A stretch of 63,498 nt of DNA, the filler included, from Atractiella rhizophila (lineage: Eukaryota): NCBI GenBank assembly GCA_021432655.1. It is 5 parts of 5 records of this genome, joined end to end, with 100 filler letters (N's around TTAATTAATTAA, not from the genome) between each part and the next. Parts side by side here need not be neighbours in the genome. Positions count along the whole stretch, not along the records: positions 1 to 28,107 come from MU271680.1; 4 more parts are not named here. One strand, given 5' to 3'. A program made the translations under genes and the position numbers. This document shows positions 10,973 to 62,427 of the stretch, piece by piece (position 1 is the first letter of the stretch; each line of letters begins with the position of its first letter). Below the pieces are notes generated by a model. That model did not search any database. It was not told where the DNA came from and saw nothing but the letters and a program-made list of their open reading frames with translations.

Positions 10973-13900
10973 ATGGCTCAGCAAATGGCTACCACCTCTC
11001 TCCGCCAGTCCATCCAAACTATCGTACTCGGCGGCGGTCACGCAGGGGTTGAAGCCTCATGTGCGGCTGCCAGGGTCGGAGCGAAGACCATGTTGGTTAC
11101 CCAGAGGTGGGATACAGTGGGAGAAATGAGTTGCAACCCATCGTGGGGAGGTATTGGCAAGGGGACATTGATTAGGGAGCTCGATGCTCTGGATGGGGTT
11201 GCGGGAAGGGCGGCTGGTGAGCTTTTCTCACTTTTTGTTGTGTCTGCAATTTTGTTCTGTTCCTTGGAATGAGCCAAATTGCATTTAATATATTCGTACA
11301 TATGCACGAGAATATGCAAGCATGGAACAAAGGCGCATATGGCACTTTTTGACCGTTTTGCAATTTTTGCAGCGACAGTCGCTGAAGCTAGAACTCTAGT
11401 TTTATTTTTTCCAAGACGATGCTCTGAAGCCAAATCTTCCTAGCTGAACCTTATTGAACTTACGTTCTACGTGATTCAACTGCCTATTGTTACTTGAGCT
11501 TGCACTGCGTTGTAATGAGGGGCAAATGCATACGTTGGAGACTGTCTTCAGGTAGCGCTCCCTGGTCACATGTCGCTCTGTTCTGCACGAAGAAGGCCTT
11601 GCCGTACGCCGCTAAAGGTAATATCACAATAGCACCACAGTGAAAGTAAAGTGCGGATATATGTTAAGCAAGATACTGTCGTCAGCAAAGAAGTTTGCAG
11701 TAGGTTCTTAAATTTTCATTAACGGTTCCATTGTCGCCCATCATTCTTCCTTTCAAGGCGAGCTCAAGTAGCTTTGTTCGACTTTTTAGTCCTAATCTGT
11801 GCTTCTGTAATCCAGATCAAGCCAGTCTACAACATCGCGTCCTCAATCGTTCGAAAGGTCCAGCGGTCTGGGGTCTACGAGCACAAGTCTCTCGCAAGCT
11901 CTATAAATCCGAAATTCAACGCGTCGTTTCTTCACACAACAACCTAACGGTGAAAGAGGGCATTGTTTCGGACCTCCTGTTATCGGACGATGGAAGAAAA
12001 GTACGAGGTGTGCGCTTGGAGACCGGAGAGGAGGTAGAGTGCGAAACATTGGTTATTTGTACCGGCACATTTCTTGGAGGAGAAATACATCTGGGTTTGT
12101 TCCCTCCTGTCTCAGAACGGAATATGCAATAACGAGGCGGGATAGGGAGGAAAGTCGTACCTCTCGGGCGAATGCCCAGTGAAGGAGAACCAGAAGTACC
12201 CGCTTCAGCTCTCTCACTCGCTTTCAAGAAAGCAGGCTTTAAGCTGGGCAGACTGAAGACAGGAACGCCGCCTAGGTTGAAAGGAGCCAGCATCAACTAT
12301 AAGGGGATGATGACGTAAGTTCTACTTTATTCCATTTGATGGTCGAACTGAAGGAGGATGTGTCCATAGTTCGGAAGGCGATCAACCGCCTGTTCCTTTT
12401 GGCGAGCTCGGAGAAGGTGTGAGGACCGATGTTTGTGTTCTCCTTCATTCACGTTGAAGACAATCGTTGACCCATGGTAGGGAGAGCAAATAAGATGCTA
12501 TCTTACCCGTACAACAAAAGAAACGGCTAACATTGCACGCTCCAATATGGATAAAAGTATGTATGTAAAAGAAGAGGTAAATGGTACGTTGTTTTCTCAT
12601 TTATTGGATGTGACATACCATCAGAATCGGATTTATCTTTCCACCAGGGCCACGGTATTGCCCCTCATTTGAGGCCAAAGTCATACGATTCGAGAAGAAG
12701 GAATCACACCAGGTTTGGTTGGAACCGGAAGACTGCGATCAAGGTATGTACATACCCTCGCTCGCGCTTCATTAGCATTCCTGACAAATGATCTCAAAGA
12801 GATAATTTACCCTCAGGGCTTGTCGATATCTCATCCTGAGGACGTTCAACTCCAGCTCCTCCGCTCAATTCCTGGTCTAGAACACGTGGAGATGCTACGA
12901 CCGGGCTATGGAGTGGAATATGATTACATTGACCCTACTGGACTCAAACGTTCGTTCCTCCTACTTCATTTCCTCCCCGAATCATCCCGCTTCGTAGACA
13001 CTCTCGAGACGCGAGCGATTGATGGCCTCTTCCTCGCTGGGCAGATTAACGGGACCACCGGCTATGAGGAAGCGGCATCGCAAGGCGTCATAGCTGGTAT
13101 TAATGCAGGAAACAAAGCTCTTCGAAGAGAGCCTTTAACTTTAACAAGGGCGGATGGGTATATTGGAGTCATGATTGTGAGCTTCGTCTTCTTCCCAAAG
13201 AGCTTGGCCTGTGTTAATAGACGAGCAGGATGATTTAGTCACGAAAGGCGTACAGGAGCCTTGTATCAATTCTCACTCGCTTTAAGGATGCATTGTTAAA
13301 GCGACTTTGCAGACCGGATGTTCACGTCACGGACAGAGTATCGAATGACACTCAGGCCGGATAATGCCGACGTTCGATTGACAGCCAAAGGTAACAAACC
13401 CACTCGCCTTTCTCGCACCTCTAAGCTGTAGTCAGGACATGCTATTGGAGCCATCAGTCCTCGCCGCTGGGCTTATTTCAACAACACCCGCTCTCAACTC
13501 GAAGATGGGAGGAAAATGCTACAAGAATTTATTCTTTCTGCACGACGATGGCGGACTGCTGGAATACAGATTCAGGATGACGTCGGTGCCATCAAGTTAG
13601 TGAAGACACCCTTCTGAATTCCTGCTGACTGAACGCACAGCGCCATGGATTTGCTTCGTTATGAGAACGTTCATCCTTCAGCATTGACGCATTTGATTCC
13701 CCAATTGTCGAATCTCGAAGCTCGAATATTGGACCGCTTAAAGATTGAAGGTGTGTGGTTCCCCTTTGTGGTTTTATTGCTCTCGTCTGACTTGAGCTTA
13801 GGAGCGTATAAGTAAGTGGTTATGCATGCCAAAGCTAGCTCCTGATCAAGGTCCAGGGTTCGCCTAAGGAGGCAAGAGGCAGAGATTCGAGCATTCGAGA

Positions 13901-17199: not shown

Positions 17200-18192
17200 T
17201 GTGCTCGAACGTCAGCGAACGAGTTTGAATGAAGATAAAAAGGGAGAAGCGATACTTACTTTTTGGAACTTTTCGAGCGGAGACCACTCAAACGGAGTAT
17301 ATCGAGCTGTCACTGTGAAAGCGGTCTTCAAATAACGATGAAATATTGTACGTCTAGTATAAGCTCGCCGAGCGAGAGGCAGAGATTGAAAATTGGCTGA
17401 AAATGAGATGCGGCGAATGAAATGAACAGAAGCGAAAGGAGTGATGTAATTGGAAGATGTTTCTTGCCCTTGACAAATTTAGGCGACTAGCAATGCTGTA
17501 AGACAACCCTGTAAACGCCACAACTGACAATAGGTCCTGCAGGAGCAGGAGAAGCAGTTGCCAATTGCTGAATTTGGCACCGGCAATGGTCAGGGCAAGA
17601 TCAGCATCGCGTGGTTGAAGCCGGGCTGACTACGACTATGATTTCGAAATGTCTCACTACGGCAGCTTAACTCGGTCACGTAACAGCATACAGAAGCAAT
17701 AAAGTGTAATATCTATTGAATGCAATCTTGATGGAACAAGATGAGTGTGCAACAGTGTATTAACGTAGTGAGGGACAACAGGAGCAGGTGGAGCTGGGAG
17801 GATATAGATAGCGAGCGAATGTGGTGATTGACTTGGAAGGGAGGAACAGGTGCGTCTATCTTGCCAGCTGTATGGCGACTGCATCTATTCAAATTTTGGT
17901 TGTTTGTTTGACGCTTCTAGTTTCTAAGAGTTACCTTCTGAAACTTCTCGATAGTGTACTGTACTGTAGAGTCAAAGCGCTTCTTCACGCCTTTTGCTTT
18001 GCTGCATCACAGCGCGATTGGTCAACCACCCTATCGATTGCGCCGTCTATAAAGATATCGGGTATAGGACAGCAGAGCAAGAGAGTGAAAAAAAGAGCGC
18101 CAATTTACATCACACATTCCTTCTCACACCAAAACAACAACAATAACCATCTTTTCATTTTATTTGCATCATTGATCGATTTCTCAGACCGT

Positions 18193-19941
18193 TTACCAGA
18201 CGACGGCCCTGAGGTTGGTGGTTCCGCTGGGGAATCCGGTAGCGTCAGCGACCGCGTTAGACTTGAGAGAAGCCTGGAGGGAGGCAGGGGAACTGTTTCA
18301 TTTGTCCATTCATCATCAGTCATCTTGTTCTTCCTAGGCGAGGAAACGTACGCGTTAGCCTTGCTAAGTTCAACAGCCAAGATACCAGCGACACCGGGAG
18401 CAGCCATGGAGGTTCCGGAGAGAGTCGCGGTCGCGGTGGTGGAGCCAATGTAGGCAGAGCGGACGGAGACGCCAAGGAAGTGAACCTGTTTGTGTGACGT
18501 TTCGTCAATCTTTTGATCAGAGGAGAAGTGATGAAGGGCATACGTCGATGACGGCACCGTAGTTGCTGAAGGAAGCCTTAGCCTTAGCGGAGCTGATGGC
18601 ACCTGCAGTCGCAAATGAGAATATTTTCTGTGTATGGAAAGAATCAACATACCAACTGTAACCGCAGAAGTTACGCGGGCAGGGCTGTAGTTTCCAGCGT
18701 TGGCACTATTTTTCCTTCAGTATGTGCTCGGATCTATTCAAAGACCTTACTTGTCGTTTCCGGCTAAGCCCCCAGCCGTCAATTCGTTTGCACAAGATGG
18801 GAGGGAAGGAGAGACATACCAGCAATGGTGACGTGGACACCAGCACTGACAGCACCGCTGACAGCAGAGTCAACGGATGTAGATGCGCTTCCACCGAGAG
18901 AGAGGTTGATGACAGAGGGTCTGCCAGAAGCAGCACCAGCGTTGGCACTATCATCCAAACTGTTAGCTTCGTGGGTAGTGATAAGAAAAGTGCTCTCACG
19001 CCCAGTTGACGCCAGAAATAACGTCAGAGAAGGATCCAGAGCCGGAGTCGCTCAGGACCTTGACGGCGATGATGGAAGCGCTGGTAGCAGGTCCGAATCC
19101 AGAGCCAGCGGCGATACCCATGGTGTGAGTTCCTGTAAAACAATTACAGTCAGGATCCACTCTGTACAAAAGGTACAAGTCCGTCGAAGGGAATGATCGC
19201 GGGTAGCGTACCATGTCCGTTTCCGTCCTAAAATACGTGAGCGATGGAGCAAGCTGCAGAGAGAGACACATACAGCGTTGGCATATCCTCCGAAGGTCGC
19301 TCCCCAGCTGGCGCGGCCTCCGAAAGCGCTGTGTGCGGTGTAAACTCCAGTATCGACGGAGTAGCTGCATGGCTCAGTCAGATTTTATTTTGACAGGCAA
19401 AAGACGTACATGTTAACACCGGATCCAGTCTGCCTCTTATTGAGGTGGGCAACTACGGGCTCAGGAGACCTCTCCTCGAGGCTAGTTTCCTGAACATCAA
19501 AGTTGATGGTGATGGTTCCGTCCTGTTTTTTTTTATGTCAGCGTCCCGTGGAGGGACACGGGGAGAAACCGAACCTCCTCGACGAATTCAACGTTGTCGT
19601 CAGCCAATACCTGGTCAAGAACAGCAGGCGAGAGCTCGGCAGCGTAAGCATTGATGATGGTCCAATCGTCGTAAATAACATTGGCGACGATATCCGTGCC
19701 AACTTCAGCGATGCCCGCGACGTCTCCCTGCAGGACCCATTAATGAGCTCATTTGGGAAAAAGAGAAGAAAGAGCGTACAATGGAGGCAATGGAAGCACC
19801 CTTGTCAGCTCCGTCCTTCAGCTTGACAATGTAGCGGTTGGCAGCGCCAGGAGTCTCAGCTCGCCTGTACTTGGGGTGAACGTTGGTGGGAGCTGCAAGG
19901 ACTCCGGCAGTGAGCGTCAAGAGAGTCGCAAGAGAAAGCAT
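18193..19941 (-). CDS. Secreted subtilisin-like serine protease (S8, proteinase K subfamily) with I9 propeptide
   Basis: Signal peptide MLSLATLLTLTAGVLA; propeptide RYIVKLKD; catalytic motifs VDTG, GHG|THTMG and SGTSMAAP; also IIAVKVL, NLSLGG and AGND. Ends NLRAVVW*. Confidence 0.93.
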
Positions 19942-21523: not shown

Positions 21524-23507
21524 TTATTTTTTCAGACCCCTTACCTTTCCCTTTGCCCTTCCCCTTCCTCGGCTAGGACCTGGAATGGGAAGTTCCAGGA
21601 CAGGTTTCGTACCGCCTCCCGGTCTCATTCTCAAGTTTCTGATGAGCTCCGCATCCTCCCTCGTTGTTCTTACAGGTCGGCGAACGCTCCTCTCTCCCTC
21701 AGTAGTAAAGTCTTCTATATCATCCCCTTCCTCCGAATCATTGAACTCCAACCCATCTTCGCGCGGCACCGTCCCATCGAATTCAATTAAATCAACCCCG
21801 TCTTTCTTGATCTGGTCCATAGTTCGTCCAGTAAGCAGACTCTTATCCTTTAGATCGGTGCTCGTATCCTCCTTAAATATCCTGCCTCCCTTGGTCGCGA
21901 GTTGTAAGATCCAATTCCTCCTAATCTGTGCGGCTCCGTTATACTTGGACTTTGAATATTTGACATTTCCAATTTCGTGTGTAAAAGCGATCTTGATGTG
22001 ATAGCGTTTTCCGATCAGCTCCACAATGAACCCTCGTGTTTTCTTTGAGCTATGATTTGAGCGTTGAGACCGTGTCAAGACGCCCCCATCATCAGCTGCA
22101 GAGGTTACAGCTCGATATGCTTTCCCCAACCGCTGTTCTTGAATGTAGCCGGGCCACTTAGAAATATCTTGGGCTAAAGAGCTAGGTCCCACATCTGAGT
22201 CTTCAGAGGTTGAAGGGTCGAGATCACCTCCTGAATTCGAGTCGTGAACAAGATATGTCCCAAAATCCCAAACGCCTTTACAGTTTTCAATAATAAGTTC
22301 AGGACAATACGGTAGAGTTGAAGACAGACCAGTGGCACCTATGCCTCCGCCTTCGTGAAAAGAGTAGCTAGGTTAAATCAGCTTCTGCTCTCCGGAAGTA
22401 ATTAAGAGACGTACAATAAAGGGTGTATCTCTGTCTCCACAGCAAGAACTCTGCGCCCTCTTTCAGAGAGCGGAGAGAGACCTTTCGGAATGGCGAAGGA
22501 GAGGGTGCCGCCATCGTTACGCCCGAAGCGGTGAACAGTGTCACAAGTCGGACATTTATTAGGAGCAACAGGGTGAGCGGTAGTGCATTGTAAGCGAAGG
22601 TCAAAGTGGTTCGCTGTCGCGTGCTAGACGGTGATGCTTTAAGATCCTGAACGTTGTGACAGGAAGGTACGAACATGCTGTTGCCTTCAAATACACTTCA
22701 GTGCGCGAAATCATGTCAGCGCGGTAAACGTACAATGTAAAATGGTTCCTCTGCTCGGCAGCTGGGAACCGTTCCACGTATGCAGCATACCGCTCGGGCC
22801 ATCCCCAAGTAAATGTCCTTGCCTTCTTCGGCCTTCGAAGTACCACGGGGTCTTCATCCATTGCCACTTCCTCAACGGGTGGATCTCCTTGATGAGATAA
22901 TGGCGTTTCTTCGATAATTGTATCTTCGATATCGAACTGTGTTTGGGTTCGCATGAGTGGGCGAGGACTTTGTCTCTGAGTAGGATAGCTAAACTCTTCT
23001 CCAGTTCTCAGCATATCCTGGACAATCGTATCCTCAATGATAGTTTCCTCCACGAGAGGAGAAAGAGCCCGAGGAGGTGGCAGCGCGAAAGATAAGCCTT
23101 GCGTCTGTGACGGCTGCTTGAACGTCTGGGATTTGCTCATCTCCAGCTCGCCATCGTGCATATCAAAATCTCTGATTCCTTTAATTCCCTCTCGAACAGC
23201 AGTTAAAGGCGACATTAAGTTATTCTGCACTTGGTTGTATTCCTCTCGTGCAACGGACGGGGGGGTTGGTTCGATTGACACAGGTCCATGTTGCAAGCTC
23301 GCAAGTTCATCCAGATCTTCCGTTTTCCTTTCAGGCATGGCCATTGGGAAGGGAGAAGGAGAAGGCGTGTCCCCGTAGAAATGGTGATAATCCACCGGCC
23401 CTGGCTCTTTTGGCGGTCGTGATTGCAGGATGCTCAGCCTGCCCAGATGTCAGCAACGACTCTGGAGGGAGGAACGAGGAACTCAAGTACTCAAGATACC
23501 GTAACAT
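21524..23507 (-). CDS. Stand-alone LigD 3'-phosphoesterase (PE / LigD_N) domain protein with a long low-complexity N-terminus
   Basis: Removing introns 22733-22685, 22674-22624, 22414-22368 and 22329-22276 yields FTLQQHHATANHFDLRLQ...SFAIPKGL...VLAVETEIHPLFYSFHEGGGIGATGVWDFGTY...FIVELIGKRY...NWIL...SLLTGRTMDQI, matching the PE consensus motifs in order. Probable ATG at 23507 with one short intron. Confidence 0.85.
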
Positions 23508-26233: not shown

Positions 26234-28107
26234 TCAAAGGTTTACGAAATCGTCAAAATTGACCTGGTCCGTCCCATTGCCTTCAGCAAGGCTCATCATC
26301 GCATCAACCGCTACCGATCCTTCAGCTCCTGTCCCATTCGAATCAATCGGCATCTCCTGCACCTGACCAGCATCCAATCCCGCAAAATCCTTCAGGAAGT
26401 CCTCAGCTCGGAGCCCATCGAGGTTGAGTGAGATCTCGTTCTCTCCCCCTCCTCCATCTGCCGCATTCGTTGCCTCAGAGAGCAGTTTCATGATCTCATC
26501 TTCGGTGTTCTGTGCAGGCTGTGGTGCAGCTTGGCCCTGGAGTTGGAGCTGGTAGGCTTCTTTGGTCCTGTCGCGTTGAGACTCGAGGGCTTTGCGTGAC
26601 AATTCAAGCCTTTGTTGTTCCTCTTGAAGACGGCCTGACTTCCTATCGGCGGAAATCCCAACATGTGAGCCTTCAGAAGCATATAGAAAGGAGGAACACA
26701 AACCTCGCAAGCTCTGCTCTCATCCTTCCCAGTTCGGTCCGCTCCGCTTCCACCTCCCTCTTCATGCTCTCCACCCTCCTCTTCTCATACTCCAACACCT
26801 GTTCAAACCTCTCAAAGTTCTTCACCTTCATCTCAAGCTTCGAAGTCAATCCTTCCACCACAGACAAAACCTTCTTCTGTAATGCCAGGTCCTCCTGAAG
26901 GAACAGACCGGACGCTTTCGTCGTCGCCGTCTTGAGAGACAAAAGAGCCAGGTCCTTGTTCGACTTTGTTTGGACTCCGTTGGAATGATCATCCGCGGTC
27001 CCATTCGTCATCGTAGCAGGCGGAGGCGAAGGTTTCGGAGGATGATCAGCCGGGTCTTCCTTTTCAGTGTCCATTTCGACATCATTGTCCTCCTTCTCTC
27101 CGTCCTTCTTTTCGCTTTCTTCTTCCTTCTTCTCTTCTTCCTTCCTTCGTTTCGTCAATCCATTCTTCAACCTCTCCATCACACCCTGTACCCCTCTTTG
27201 CTCCCCCGCTGCTAAAGCCGCCGTTTCCGGATCCACAAGTCCGGCGAGGAATGCGACCACAGAAAGGACCGGATTGTCCAGCTTGGTGAGAGGAGGGTGC
27301 TGAAAATCGGTAAGGAGGGACTTGGCGTCCTCCGGCGGTTGAAATGGCGCATTAATTGGGAGACGAAGGAAGTGAGCGAGGCATTGCGTCCTCGACCTGG
27401 TGCCCACATGTCGCGCAACATTATCCCATGCATCTGTATTAGGGTCCGTCGACGCATCCGCGTACATCTCGAGTGCCTCGAGGAGGCGTAACGTCTCTTC
27501 ATCCTTCCAATCGTCCTTAGAGTCGAAGTTGGCCAATGAGTCGGATGGGTCGGTGACTACTTTGATGAAGTCGCCATTGGATAGGTTCATGGGGAATCGA
27601 GCGGAGAGATAACATGAGTGACAGACTGTCGTCTCTTCTTCCGTTCCGGTCACAGTTTCATCTTCGTCCTTCCTTTTTCCTCCGATTGAACGATAACGCA
27701 CTCTTCCGCACTCCACACCACAGGAATCGCACTGGTAGACCAACTTCTCCTGTCCTCCTTCGAATTCTTCACCTTCGGCCTTCAAGACCTCCTTCGCCCC
27801 TTCTTTCGCCTCCTCCTCCGAGAGTTTGACGGCATCCTTCCCACCGCTCCGATGCTGGAAAATCGACTTGGTCAGCTCAAGCGTAGGAGTCGTCCCGATT
27901 GTTCGCGCAATCTCATCCGTTTTCTTTCCCGGTACGACCTGCGGAAGAGTGGGCTCAGCAGAGGTGCCTGGGTGAAGTAGTTGTGGCGCGAGACCGCGCG
28001 GTGTGTCGATGAGGACGCGGAAGTGGCCGGTGAAGGGAGGGACGAGGGTTGATGGTCGAGTTGACGGGTCGATCTACAAAAGCATGGGAATCAGCATTTC
28101 CCAAAAG
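26234..28107 (-). CDS. RSC8: SWI/SNF-RSC complex subunit, Swi3/Rsc8/Ssr2 family; 5' part lost at contig end
   Basis: IDPSTRPSTLVPPFTGHFRVLIDTPRGL; ZZ-like CDSCGVEC...CHSCY; SANT WKDEETLRLLEALEMY..WDNVARHVGTRSRTQCLAHFLRLPI; NPVLSVVAFLAGLVDP; coiled coil KLEMKVKNFERFE. Confidence 0.92.
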
Positions 28108-28207
28108 NNNNNNNNNNNNNNNNNNNNNNNNNNNNNNNNNNNNNNNNNNNNTTAATTAATTAANNNNNNNNNNNNNNNNNNNNNNNNNNNNNNNNNNNNN
28201 NNNNNNN
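28108..28207. other. Artificial contig linker (100 bp: N run, TTAATTAATTAA, N run)
   Basis: N runs flank a six-frame stop 12-mer; the same structure occurs four times in the window. Confidence 0.97.
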
Positions 28208-58825: not shown

Positions 58826-58925
58826 NNNNNNNNNNNNNNNNNNNNNNNNNNNNNNNNNNNNNNNNNNNNTTAATTAATTAANNNNNNNNNNNNNNNNNNN
58901 NNNNNNNNNNNNNNNNNNNNNNNNN
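58826..58925. other. Artificial contig linker
   Basis: N run / TTAATTAATTAA / N run. Confidence 0.97.
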
Positions 58926-61026: not shown

Positions 61027-61126
61027 NNNNNNNNNNNNNNNNNNNNNNNNNNNNNNNNNNNNNNNNNNNNTTAATTAATTAANNNNNNNNNNNNNNNNNN
61101 NNNNNNNNNNNNNNNNNNNNNNNNNN
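61027..61126. other. Artificial contig linker
   Basis: N run / TTAATTAATTAA / N run. Confidence 0.97.
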
Positions 61127-62327: not shown

Positions 62328-62427
62328 NNNNNNNNNNNNNNNNNNNNNNNNNNNNNNNNNNNNNNNNNNNNTTAATTAATTAANNNNNNNNNNNNNNNNN
62401 NNNNNNNNNNNNNNNNNNNNNNNNNNN
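62328..62427. other. Artificial contig linker
   Basis: N run / TTAATTAATTAA / N run. Confidence 0.97.

Follow-up and report, generated by a model that had tools for sequence, protein, structure and literature searches.

A predicted stand-alone LigD-type phosphoesterase encoded by a five-intron gene of the fungus Atractiella rhizophila

Much is known about the phosphoesterase (PE) enzymes of bacteria and archaea. Two papers from the Shuman laboratory (PMC3082917, PMC3300020) note stand-alone eukaryal homologues, which were thus recognized in print by 2010–2011, and a review (PMC8656161) mentions them too. For the LigD PE domain in Pseudomonas aeruginosa (PaePE), the same two papers report that His42, His48, Asp50, Arg52, His84 and Tyr88 are required by both activities of the enzyme, that Arg14, Asp15, Glu21, Gln40 and Glu82 matter to the 3′-phosphomonoesterase alone, and that Lys66 and Arg76 affect the diesterase (PMC3300020, PMC3082917). 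Here we analyse a gene of this family in the basidiomycete Atractiella rhizophila. It lies on the minus strand at 23507..21524 of a 63,498-nucleotide (nt) stretch of DNA, the window, that joins five parts of assembly GCA_021432655.1. We consider it probable (about 0.75) that this is a genuine spliceosomal nuclear gene of A. rhizophila, a member of the Pucciniomycotina, encoding a LigD-type PE that would heal blocked 3′ ends. The literature searched yielded no study of a fungal PE; PMC12686926, which was checked, concerns a calcineurin-like phosphoesterase and is irrelevant.

Exon–intron structure of the PE gene

The stop-to-stop list of open reading frames (ORFs) breaks the gene into three pieces in different frames (22601–23449, 22402–22623 and 21524–22372). 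Splicing the minus strand as 23507–23491/23438–22734/22684–22675/22623–22415/22367–21524 removes four introns, all GT..AG, of 52, 49, 51 and 47 nt and opens a frame of 594 amino acids (aa). This translation, with its 10-nt micro-exon at 22675–22684, yields every peptide quoted in the original prediction. Removal of one further intron, 22329–22276, leaves six coding exons, separated by five introns of 47–54 nt, and a 576-aa product. This translation is identical at 576/576 positions to a deposited protein of the species, KAH8916105.1 ("hypothetical protein", 576 aa), which identifies the DNA of the window as that of A. rhizophila. We found that entry by searching with the last exon, and it carries a precomputed Pfam annotation, PF13298. 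The four introns first proposed recur in this public model and a fifth, in-frame one had been missed; the description of the gene as hidden fails, except relative to a prokaryote-style ORF track. The gene is made up as follows.

Exon 1, 23491..23507, minus strand: 17 nt, ATG at 23507
Intron 1, 23439..23490, minus strand: 52 nt, GTACTT..CAG
Exon 2, 22734..23438, minus strand: N-terminal extension with Ser/Thr-Gln (S/TQ) cluster, two acidic-hydrophobic repeats and RRPKK, then start of the PE domain (..NHFTL)
Intron 2, 22685..22733, minus strand: 49 nt, GTACGT..AAG
Micro-exon 3, 22675..22684, minus strand: 10 nt, finishes Leu241 and encodes Gln242, Gln243 and His244 (Q-x-H)
Intron 3, 22624..22674, minus strand: 51 nt, GTTCGT..TAG
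Exon 4, 22415..22623, minus strand: H-x-D-x-R (H250, D252, R254), 23-aa Cys/His loop, SFAIPKG and LAVETEIHPL, placed by the LigD_N match and alignments to PE structures
Intron 4, 22368..22414, minus strand: 47 nt, GTACGT..TAG
Exon 5, 22330..22367, minus strand: 38 nt, ..FYSFHEGGGIGATG, carries Tyr315, as in the public model
Intron 5, 22276..22329, minus strand: 54 nt, GTCTGT..AAG, in frame and without a stop, removed in the public model
Exon 6, 21524..22275, minus strand: VWDFGTY, acidic insert of ~70 aa between β5 and β6, β6–β8, SLLTGRTMDQI, acidic then basic tail

The exon 1 ATG is the first past an in-frame TGA 12 nt upstream and the start is identical in the public model, with Met38 or Met40 in exon 2 as alternative starts; the stop, TAA, is at 21524–21526. 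Because exons 1 and 2 together comprise 722 nt, the micro-exon is required for the frame. The TAG of the intron 3 acceptor is an in-frame stop, which bars any earlier start of exon 4. The Q-x-H of the micro-exon provides the equivalents of PaePE Gln40 and His42, thus placing a metal ligand on a 10-nt exon. As the gene has five spliceosomal introns, bacterial contamination is ruled out.

Alternative splice forms were scored with a family hidden Markov model (HMM) built from 11 Microbotryomycete relatives, Atractiella excluded. The five-intron public model reaches 161.9 bits, 14.5 bits ahead of the four-intron model in which intron 5 is retained (147.4 bits). When the micro-exon is skipped, 5 of 50 single GT..AG introns across the gap keep the frame open, and all five routes (128.7–146.6 bits) fall 15–33 bits under the micro-exon model. 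Intron 5 removal makes the EG..VWD spacing equal to that of the Pseudohyphozyma relative, and the micro-exon aligns gap-free to VQNH, IQQH or IQKH of fungal and bacterial relatives.

Four public runs from four studies (X1–X4) hold short contigs that are 95–100% identical to parts of 21665–23352, indicating that the species or close strains occur in other samples. There are six such contigs, 151–260 nt long at depth 2–4 and without splice joints; the X4 contig stays colinear over intron 4 and the greater part of intron 5 (22263–22522), which suggests an unspliced or DNA-like source. These environmental contigs differ from the gene at nine single bases, eight of them exonic and one in intron 5, and by a sole indel of 3 nt. 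Synonymous third positions account for 5/8 exonic differences, a weak support given that at depth 2–3 the differences may be errors.

Domain, fold and active site

LigD_N (PF13298) matches the full 576-aa protein over residues 281–338 with 38.1 bits (E 1.8e-9; cut-off 31.1), as the original prediction anticipated, and matches exon 4 alone with 28.9 bits (E 1.3e-6). Because both exon 4 and the full-length protein match, the observation is more than chance. No other Pfam family is found on the protein at E up to 0.1, including the ligase families (PF01068/PF04679) and the Prim-Pol domain, in agreement with the proposal of a ligase-free LigD-type PE.

Structural comparisons lead to the same family. 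A sequence search of the PDB returned five distinct sequences (nine entries), all of them PE: 5dmp, 3p4h, 3p43, 3n9b and 2lj6. An AlphaFold model built from a 16-sequence alignment has a mean predicted local distance difference test (pLDDT) score of 56, with mean values of 81–90 per 10-residue block in the barrel strands. With this predicted model as query, Foldseek gives seven matches at E ≤ 0.001, each of them a PE structure, and the one that follows has E 0.1. In VIA-align the model superposes on 5dmp with Z 15.5 (root mean square deviation (rmsd) 2.3 Å, 146 residues) and on Pseudomonas LigD PE (3n9b), the comparison suggested at the outset, with Z 14.3 (rmsd 2.2 Å, 137 residues), the best unrelated chain reaching Z 3.0. 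A structure search of the ESM Atlas with the Atlas's own model aligned the query to LigD_N in 10/10 rows. The protein's only recognisable domain, a predicted eight-stranded β-barrel of the LigD PE type at residues ~236–486, is thus a solid and secure assignment.

All six residues essential to PE are kept. H244, H250 and D252 are the equivalents of the PaePE metal ligands His42, His48 and Asp50, R254 and H311 those of the phosphate ligands Arg52 and His84, and Y315 that of Tyr88, with the same spacing as in PaePE. Alignment to the Methanosarcina barkeri PE (MbaPE; 3p43) places the six on His36, His42, Asp44, Arg46, His78 and Tyr82 in the numbering of PMC3082917, which is one position out of step with that of the 3p43 chain. 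PaePE Gln40, Lys66 and Glu82 have their equivalents in Q242, K291 and E309. Across 16 fungal and bacterial sequences there is no variation at H250, D252, R254 or H311 and almost none at H244. The N-terminal peptide (N-peptide) reads KRD..T.EP in bacteria, AKDFQTP in Microbotryomycetes and KARTFT in Atractiella, a region in which the MAFFT alignment is unreliable; Arg14, Asp15 and Glu21 appear to be only partly kept. The sequence leads us to infer a competent phosphodiesterase and possibly a weaker phosphomonoesterase. Phosphodiesterase (ribonucleoside-resecting) activity would be the safer prediction because the N-peptide, which boosts the Pseudomonas 3′-phosphatase, appears to be only partly kept.

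Residues 1 to ~235 form an extension without counterpart in the eight relatives aligned. It is mostly of low confidence (pLDDT mostly <50), with the exception of a helix predicted at residues 66–96 (pLDDT ~75), which departs from the disordered N terminus proposed. It contains the expected SQ/TQ dipeptides, six of them within 64 residues (109–172; window 22993–23183, minus strand), a density that shuffling of the whole protein matches in 0.16% of trials and shuffling of the N terminus alone in 0.06%; this region is not conserved in relatives. The acidic-hydrophobic repeats (VEETIIEDTIV and IEDTIIEET) and RRPKK are likewise present as described. The extension (residues 1–232) matches no Pfam family, Flagellin_C at E 0.17 being far under the cut-off, and has no usable match in the Atlas when searched by features (structure TM scores 0.20–0.31). 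When searched by fold, only its helix at 64–105 matched anything (Z ≤ 3.0), with no nameable fold. Because the extension is absent from the eight relatives, nuclear location and damage regulation of the protein, as originally suggested, are speculation.

Between β2 and β3 lies a 23-aa loop (residues 257–279; window 22544–22612, minus strand; pLDDT <50) that contains Cys257, Cys268, Cys271, His261 and His275, is absent from all 15 other aligned sequences, and could bind metal. We rejected the loop as a further intron: the stretch has no AG and no GT-AG intron can be drawn. A second insert, of ~70 largely acidic residues after VWDFGTY, is common to the Microbotryomycete proteins. The two inserts could alter or occlude substrate access. 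The protein ends in a tail (residues 487–576) that is acidic then basic.

Proposed function and alternatives

From the gene structure by homology, the family, the fold and the conserved residues we infer, by analogy, a catalysis, a substrate and a cellular role. As in the bacterial and archaeal PEs, Mn2+ would be held by His244, His250 and Asp252, and the scissile or terminal phosphate by Arg254 and His311, with Tyr315 completing the site. A blocked 3′ end, carrying a 3′-phosphate or a 3′-terminal ribonucleotide, would in this way be converted to a ligatable or extendable 3′-OH. Lacking ligase and polymerase domains, the protein would need to pass its product to repair ligases and polymerases that the fungus itself supplies.

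Several observations weigh against this proposal. None of the sequencing runs found to contain this stretch is on record as RNA, and the five junctions and the start codon are predictions. The match to the bacterial PE-domain model of NCBIfam, TIGR02777 (LigD_PE_dom), reaches 36.4 bits, far short of the cut-off of 144, so that the Atractiella PE is a divergent relative of the bacterial domain rather than its equivalog. Within the active site, the Arg76 column holds Val303, with Arg302 adjoining and a register that differs between HMMER and MAFFT, and the N-peptide has Thr at the position equivalent to Asp15 and no evident equivalent of Glu21 in a poorly aligned region. The claim of an intact active site stands for the six essential residues and needs qualifying at the Asp15 position and at the Arg76 register, which appears to be off by one. 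The 23-aa and ~70-aa inserts, both of low pLDDT, break the barrel. A Pfam search of 20 raw ORFs from the window shows no link between the PE gene and other repair genes, and the literature searched yielded no assay or knockout of a eukaryal PE.

Some of these points could be read differently. The same chemistry might serve RNA as natural substrate, acting on 3′-phosphate or 2′,3′-cyclic-phosphate ends, for example in RNA repair or in tRNA or snRNA end metabolism, and the lack of a ligase or polymerase domain and of DNA-repair neighbours leaves little to tie the fungal protein to non-homologous end joining (NHEJ). However, every characterised member described in the cited papers acts on DNA ends in NHEJ contexts, and Pfam finds no RNA-binding domain on the 576-aa protein; we consider an RNA substrate unlikely. 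The degenerate N-peptide, the shifted Arg76 register, the two large low-confidence inserts and the score far under the bacterial equivalog cut-off would also fit a catalytically weak or inert relic, in which the barrel is a nucleic-acid-end binder or scaffold, or a gene that is barely expressed. Such a relic is very unlikely: the six residues essential to both activities are kept together with the equivalents of Gln40, Lys66 and Glu82, the frame is open over six exons, and most differences in the environmental contigs are synonymous.

An incorrect gene model at the micro-exon or intron 5, with Q-x-H missing from the true protein or an 18-aa insert present in it, is scarcely credible. In its favour, a 10-nt exon is unusual, and intron 5 is in frame and stop-free, its retention also leaving the frame open. 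Against this stand the family HMM scores (161.9 bits versus 147.4 with intron 5 kept and 128.7–146.6 with the micro-exon skipped) and the gap-free alignment to relatives across both sites.

The preferred reading, a spliced nuclear gene for a LigD-type PE that would heal blocked 3′ ends, could be extended. Pucciniomycotina may retain a bacterial- or archaeal-type PE as a working nuclear 3′-end healer, which in Atractiella would be placed under checkpoint-kinase control through the S/TQ cluster and would prepare 3′ ends blocked by ribonucleotides or phosphate (for example, at genomic ribonucleotides) for eukaryotic ligation. This broader scenario is unlikely; if true, it would add to eukaryotes a repair route so far undescribed in them.

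As it stands, the gene is a somewhat elaborated and not surprising addition to the known PE family that is already deposited, and current understanding is unchanged, since public databases list both the protein and its domain. It does show a basidiomycete lineage maintaining a PE with all essential residues across five introns, and if a eukaryotic PE is to be tested biochemically for the first time, this one is a reasonable choice. The gene also carries a warning for annotation: prokaryote-style ORF tracks miss the gene, and its in-frame intron is easily overlooked.

Near the PE gene, Pfam on the 20 raw ORFs finds only housekeeping pieces.

26676–28073, minus strand: raw ORF with SWIRM-assoc_1 and Myb (SWI3-like chromatin remodeller subunit)
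12673–13230, plus strand: raw ORF with GIDA (MTO1-like)
18105–18713, minus strand: raw ORF with a subtilase fragment

These are ordinary eukaryotic neighbours and gene order is uninformative. Elsewhere in the window, 28108–28207, 58826–58925, 61027–61126 and 62328–62427 each consist of paired runs of 44 N with 12 bases between.

Comparison with known systems

The closest relatives found appear to be stand-alone PE proteins of Microbotryomycetes, in searches too shallow to define the range of PE in fungi or to claim absence from other groups. An exhaustive search of representatives with the C-terminal half as query gave 12 proteins at E ≤ 0.001, one of them the species' own partial model, and 7 of the 9 matches looked up are Microbotryomycete proteins. 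A word-based profile search (7999 candidates scored) gave 20 matches: Atractiella itself, 10 Microbotryomycete proteins, 2 from Logan (one with PF13298) and 7 multidomain LigD proteins of bacterial type. The single match in a search for shorter proteins (15 candidates) is the species' own partial duplicate. The named relatives belong to the genera Rhodotorula, Rhodosporidiobolus, Sporobolomyces and Pseudohyphozyma, followed by the multidomain bacterial-type LigD proteins.

Three further observations concern these sequences. BT69DRAFT_1341392, a 263-aa partial model on another contig of the species' public assembly, matches the C-terminal part of the PE protein with 100% identity and may be a duplicate or haplotig. 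Rhodosporidiobolus azoricus has two PE paralogues on one 300-kb contig, their locus numbers differing by three, which looks like a local family duplication. KAJ8292562.1 of R. toruloides is named 'Multifunctional ... end joining DNA repair protein LigD'; it has 373 aa with LigD_N as sole Pfam match (E up to 0.01), and the name overstates it.

The Microbotryomycete PEs, such as those of Rhodotorula graminis (XP_018270146.1), R. toruloides (KAJ8292562.1) and Pseudohyphozyma bogoriensis (KAI5475413.1), come from the same subphylum as Atractiella and are 27–33% identical to its protein in the PE region. Common to all are the PE barrel, the long acidic insert after VWDxGTY, an RGFVxELxGxRY strand, a SLLTxRTMxEI end and a charged tail, and LigD_N is the sole DNA-repair domain throughout. 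The Atractiella protein differs in having ~160 extra residues at its N terminus, among them the S/TQ cluster and the acidic repeats, the additional 23-aa Cys/His loop, and apparently Thr for Asp in the xKDF motif of the N-peptide. At the Glu82 position it has Glu, whereas the Microbotryomycete PEs have N, Q, V, S, I, L, R or D.

The archaeal PEs of Methanocella paludicola (5dmp), Methanosarcina barkeri (3p43) and Candidatus Korarchaeum (3p4h) are also ligase-free and share the fold (Z 15.5, 12.2 and 12.0; 32–35% identity over the aligned core) and the same six active-site residues; the C-terminal S(V/L)LTGRTMD(E/Q)I is common to 5dmp and Atractiella. Unlike the Atractiella protein, they are minimal (117–169 aa), without inserts or extensions, and their partners are archaeal Ku, ligase and polymerase. 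Experiments have demonstrated that they are active, whereas the activity of the Atractiella protein is predicted by analogy.

The PE of Pseudomonas aeruginosa LigD (3n9b/3n9d/2lj6) aligns over 137/148 residues (Z 14.3, rmsd 2.2 Å), and the equivalents of its His42, His48, Asp50, Arg52, His84, Tyr88, Gln40, Lys66 and Glu82 are kept. The bacterial LigD matches carry PF01068, PF04679 and PF21686, whereas the Atractiella PE is unfused to ligase or polymerase, is encoded by a eukaryotic gene with introns and appears to keep the N-peptide residues only in part.

Eukaryotes heal 3′ ends with Tpp1/PNKP-type HAD phosphatases, Apn1/Apn2 and Tdp1, the folds and mechanisms of which are unrelated to PE. 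These enzymes appeared in none of the searches run, no search having been aimed at them, and their likeness to the Atractiella PE would be one of functional analogy only, namely the conversion of a blocked 3′ end to a 3′-OH.

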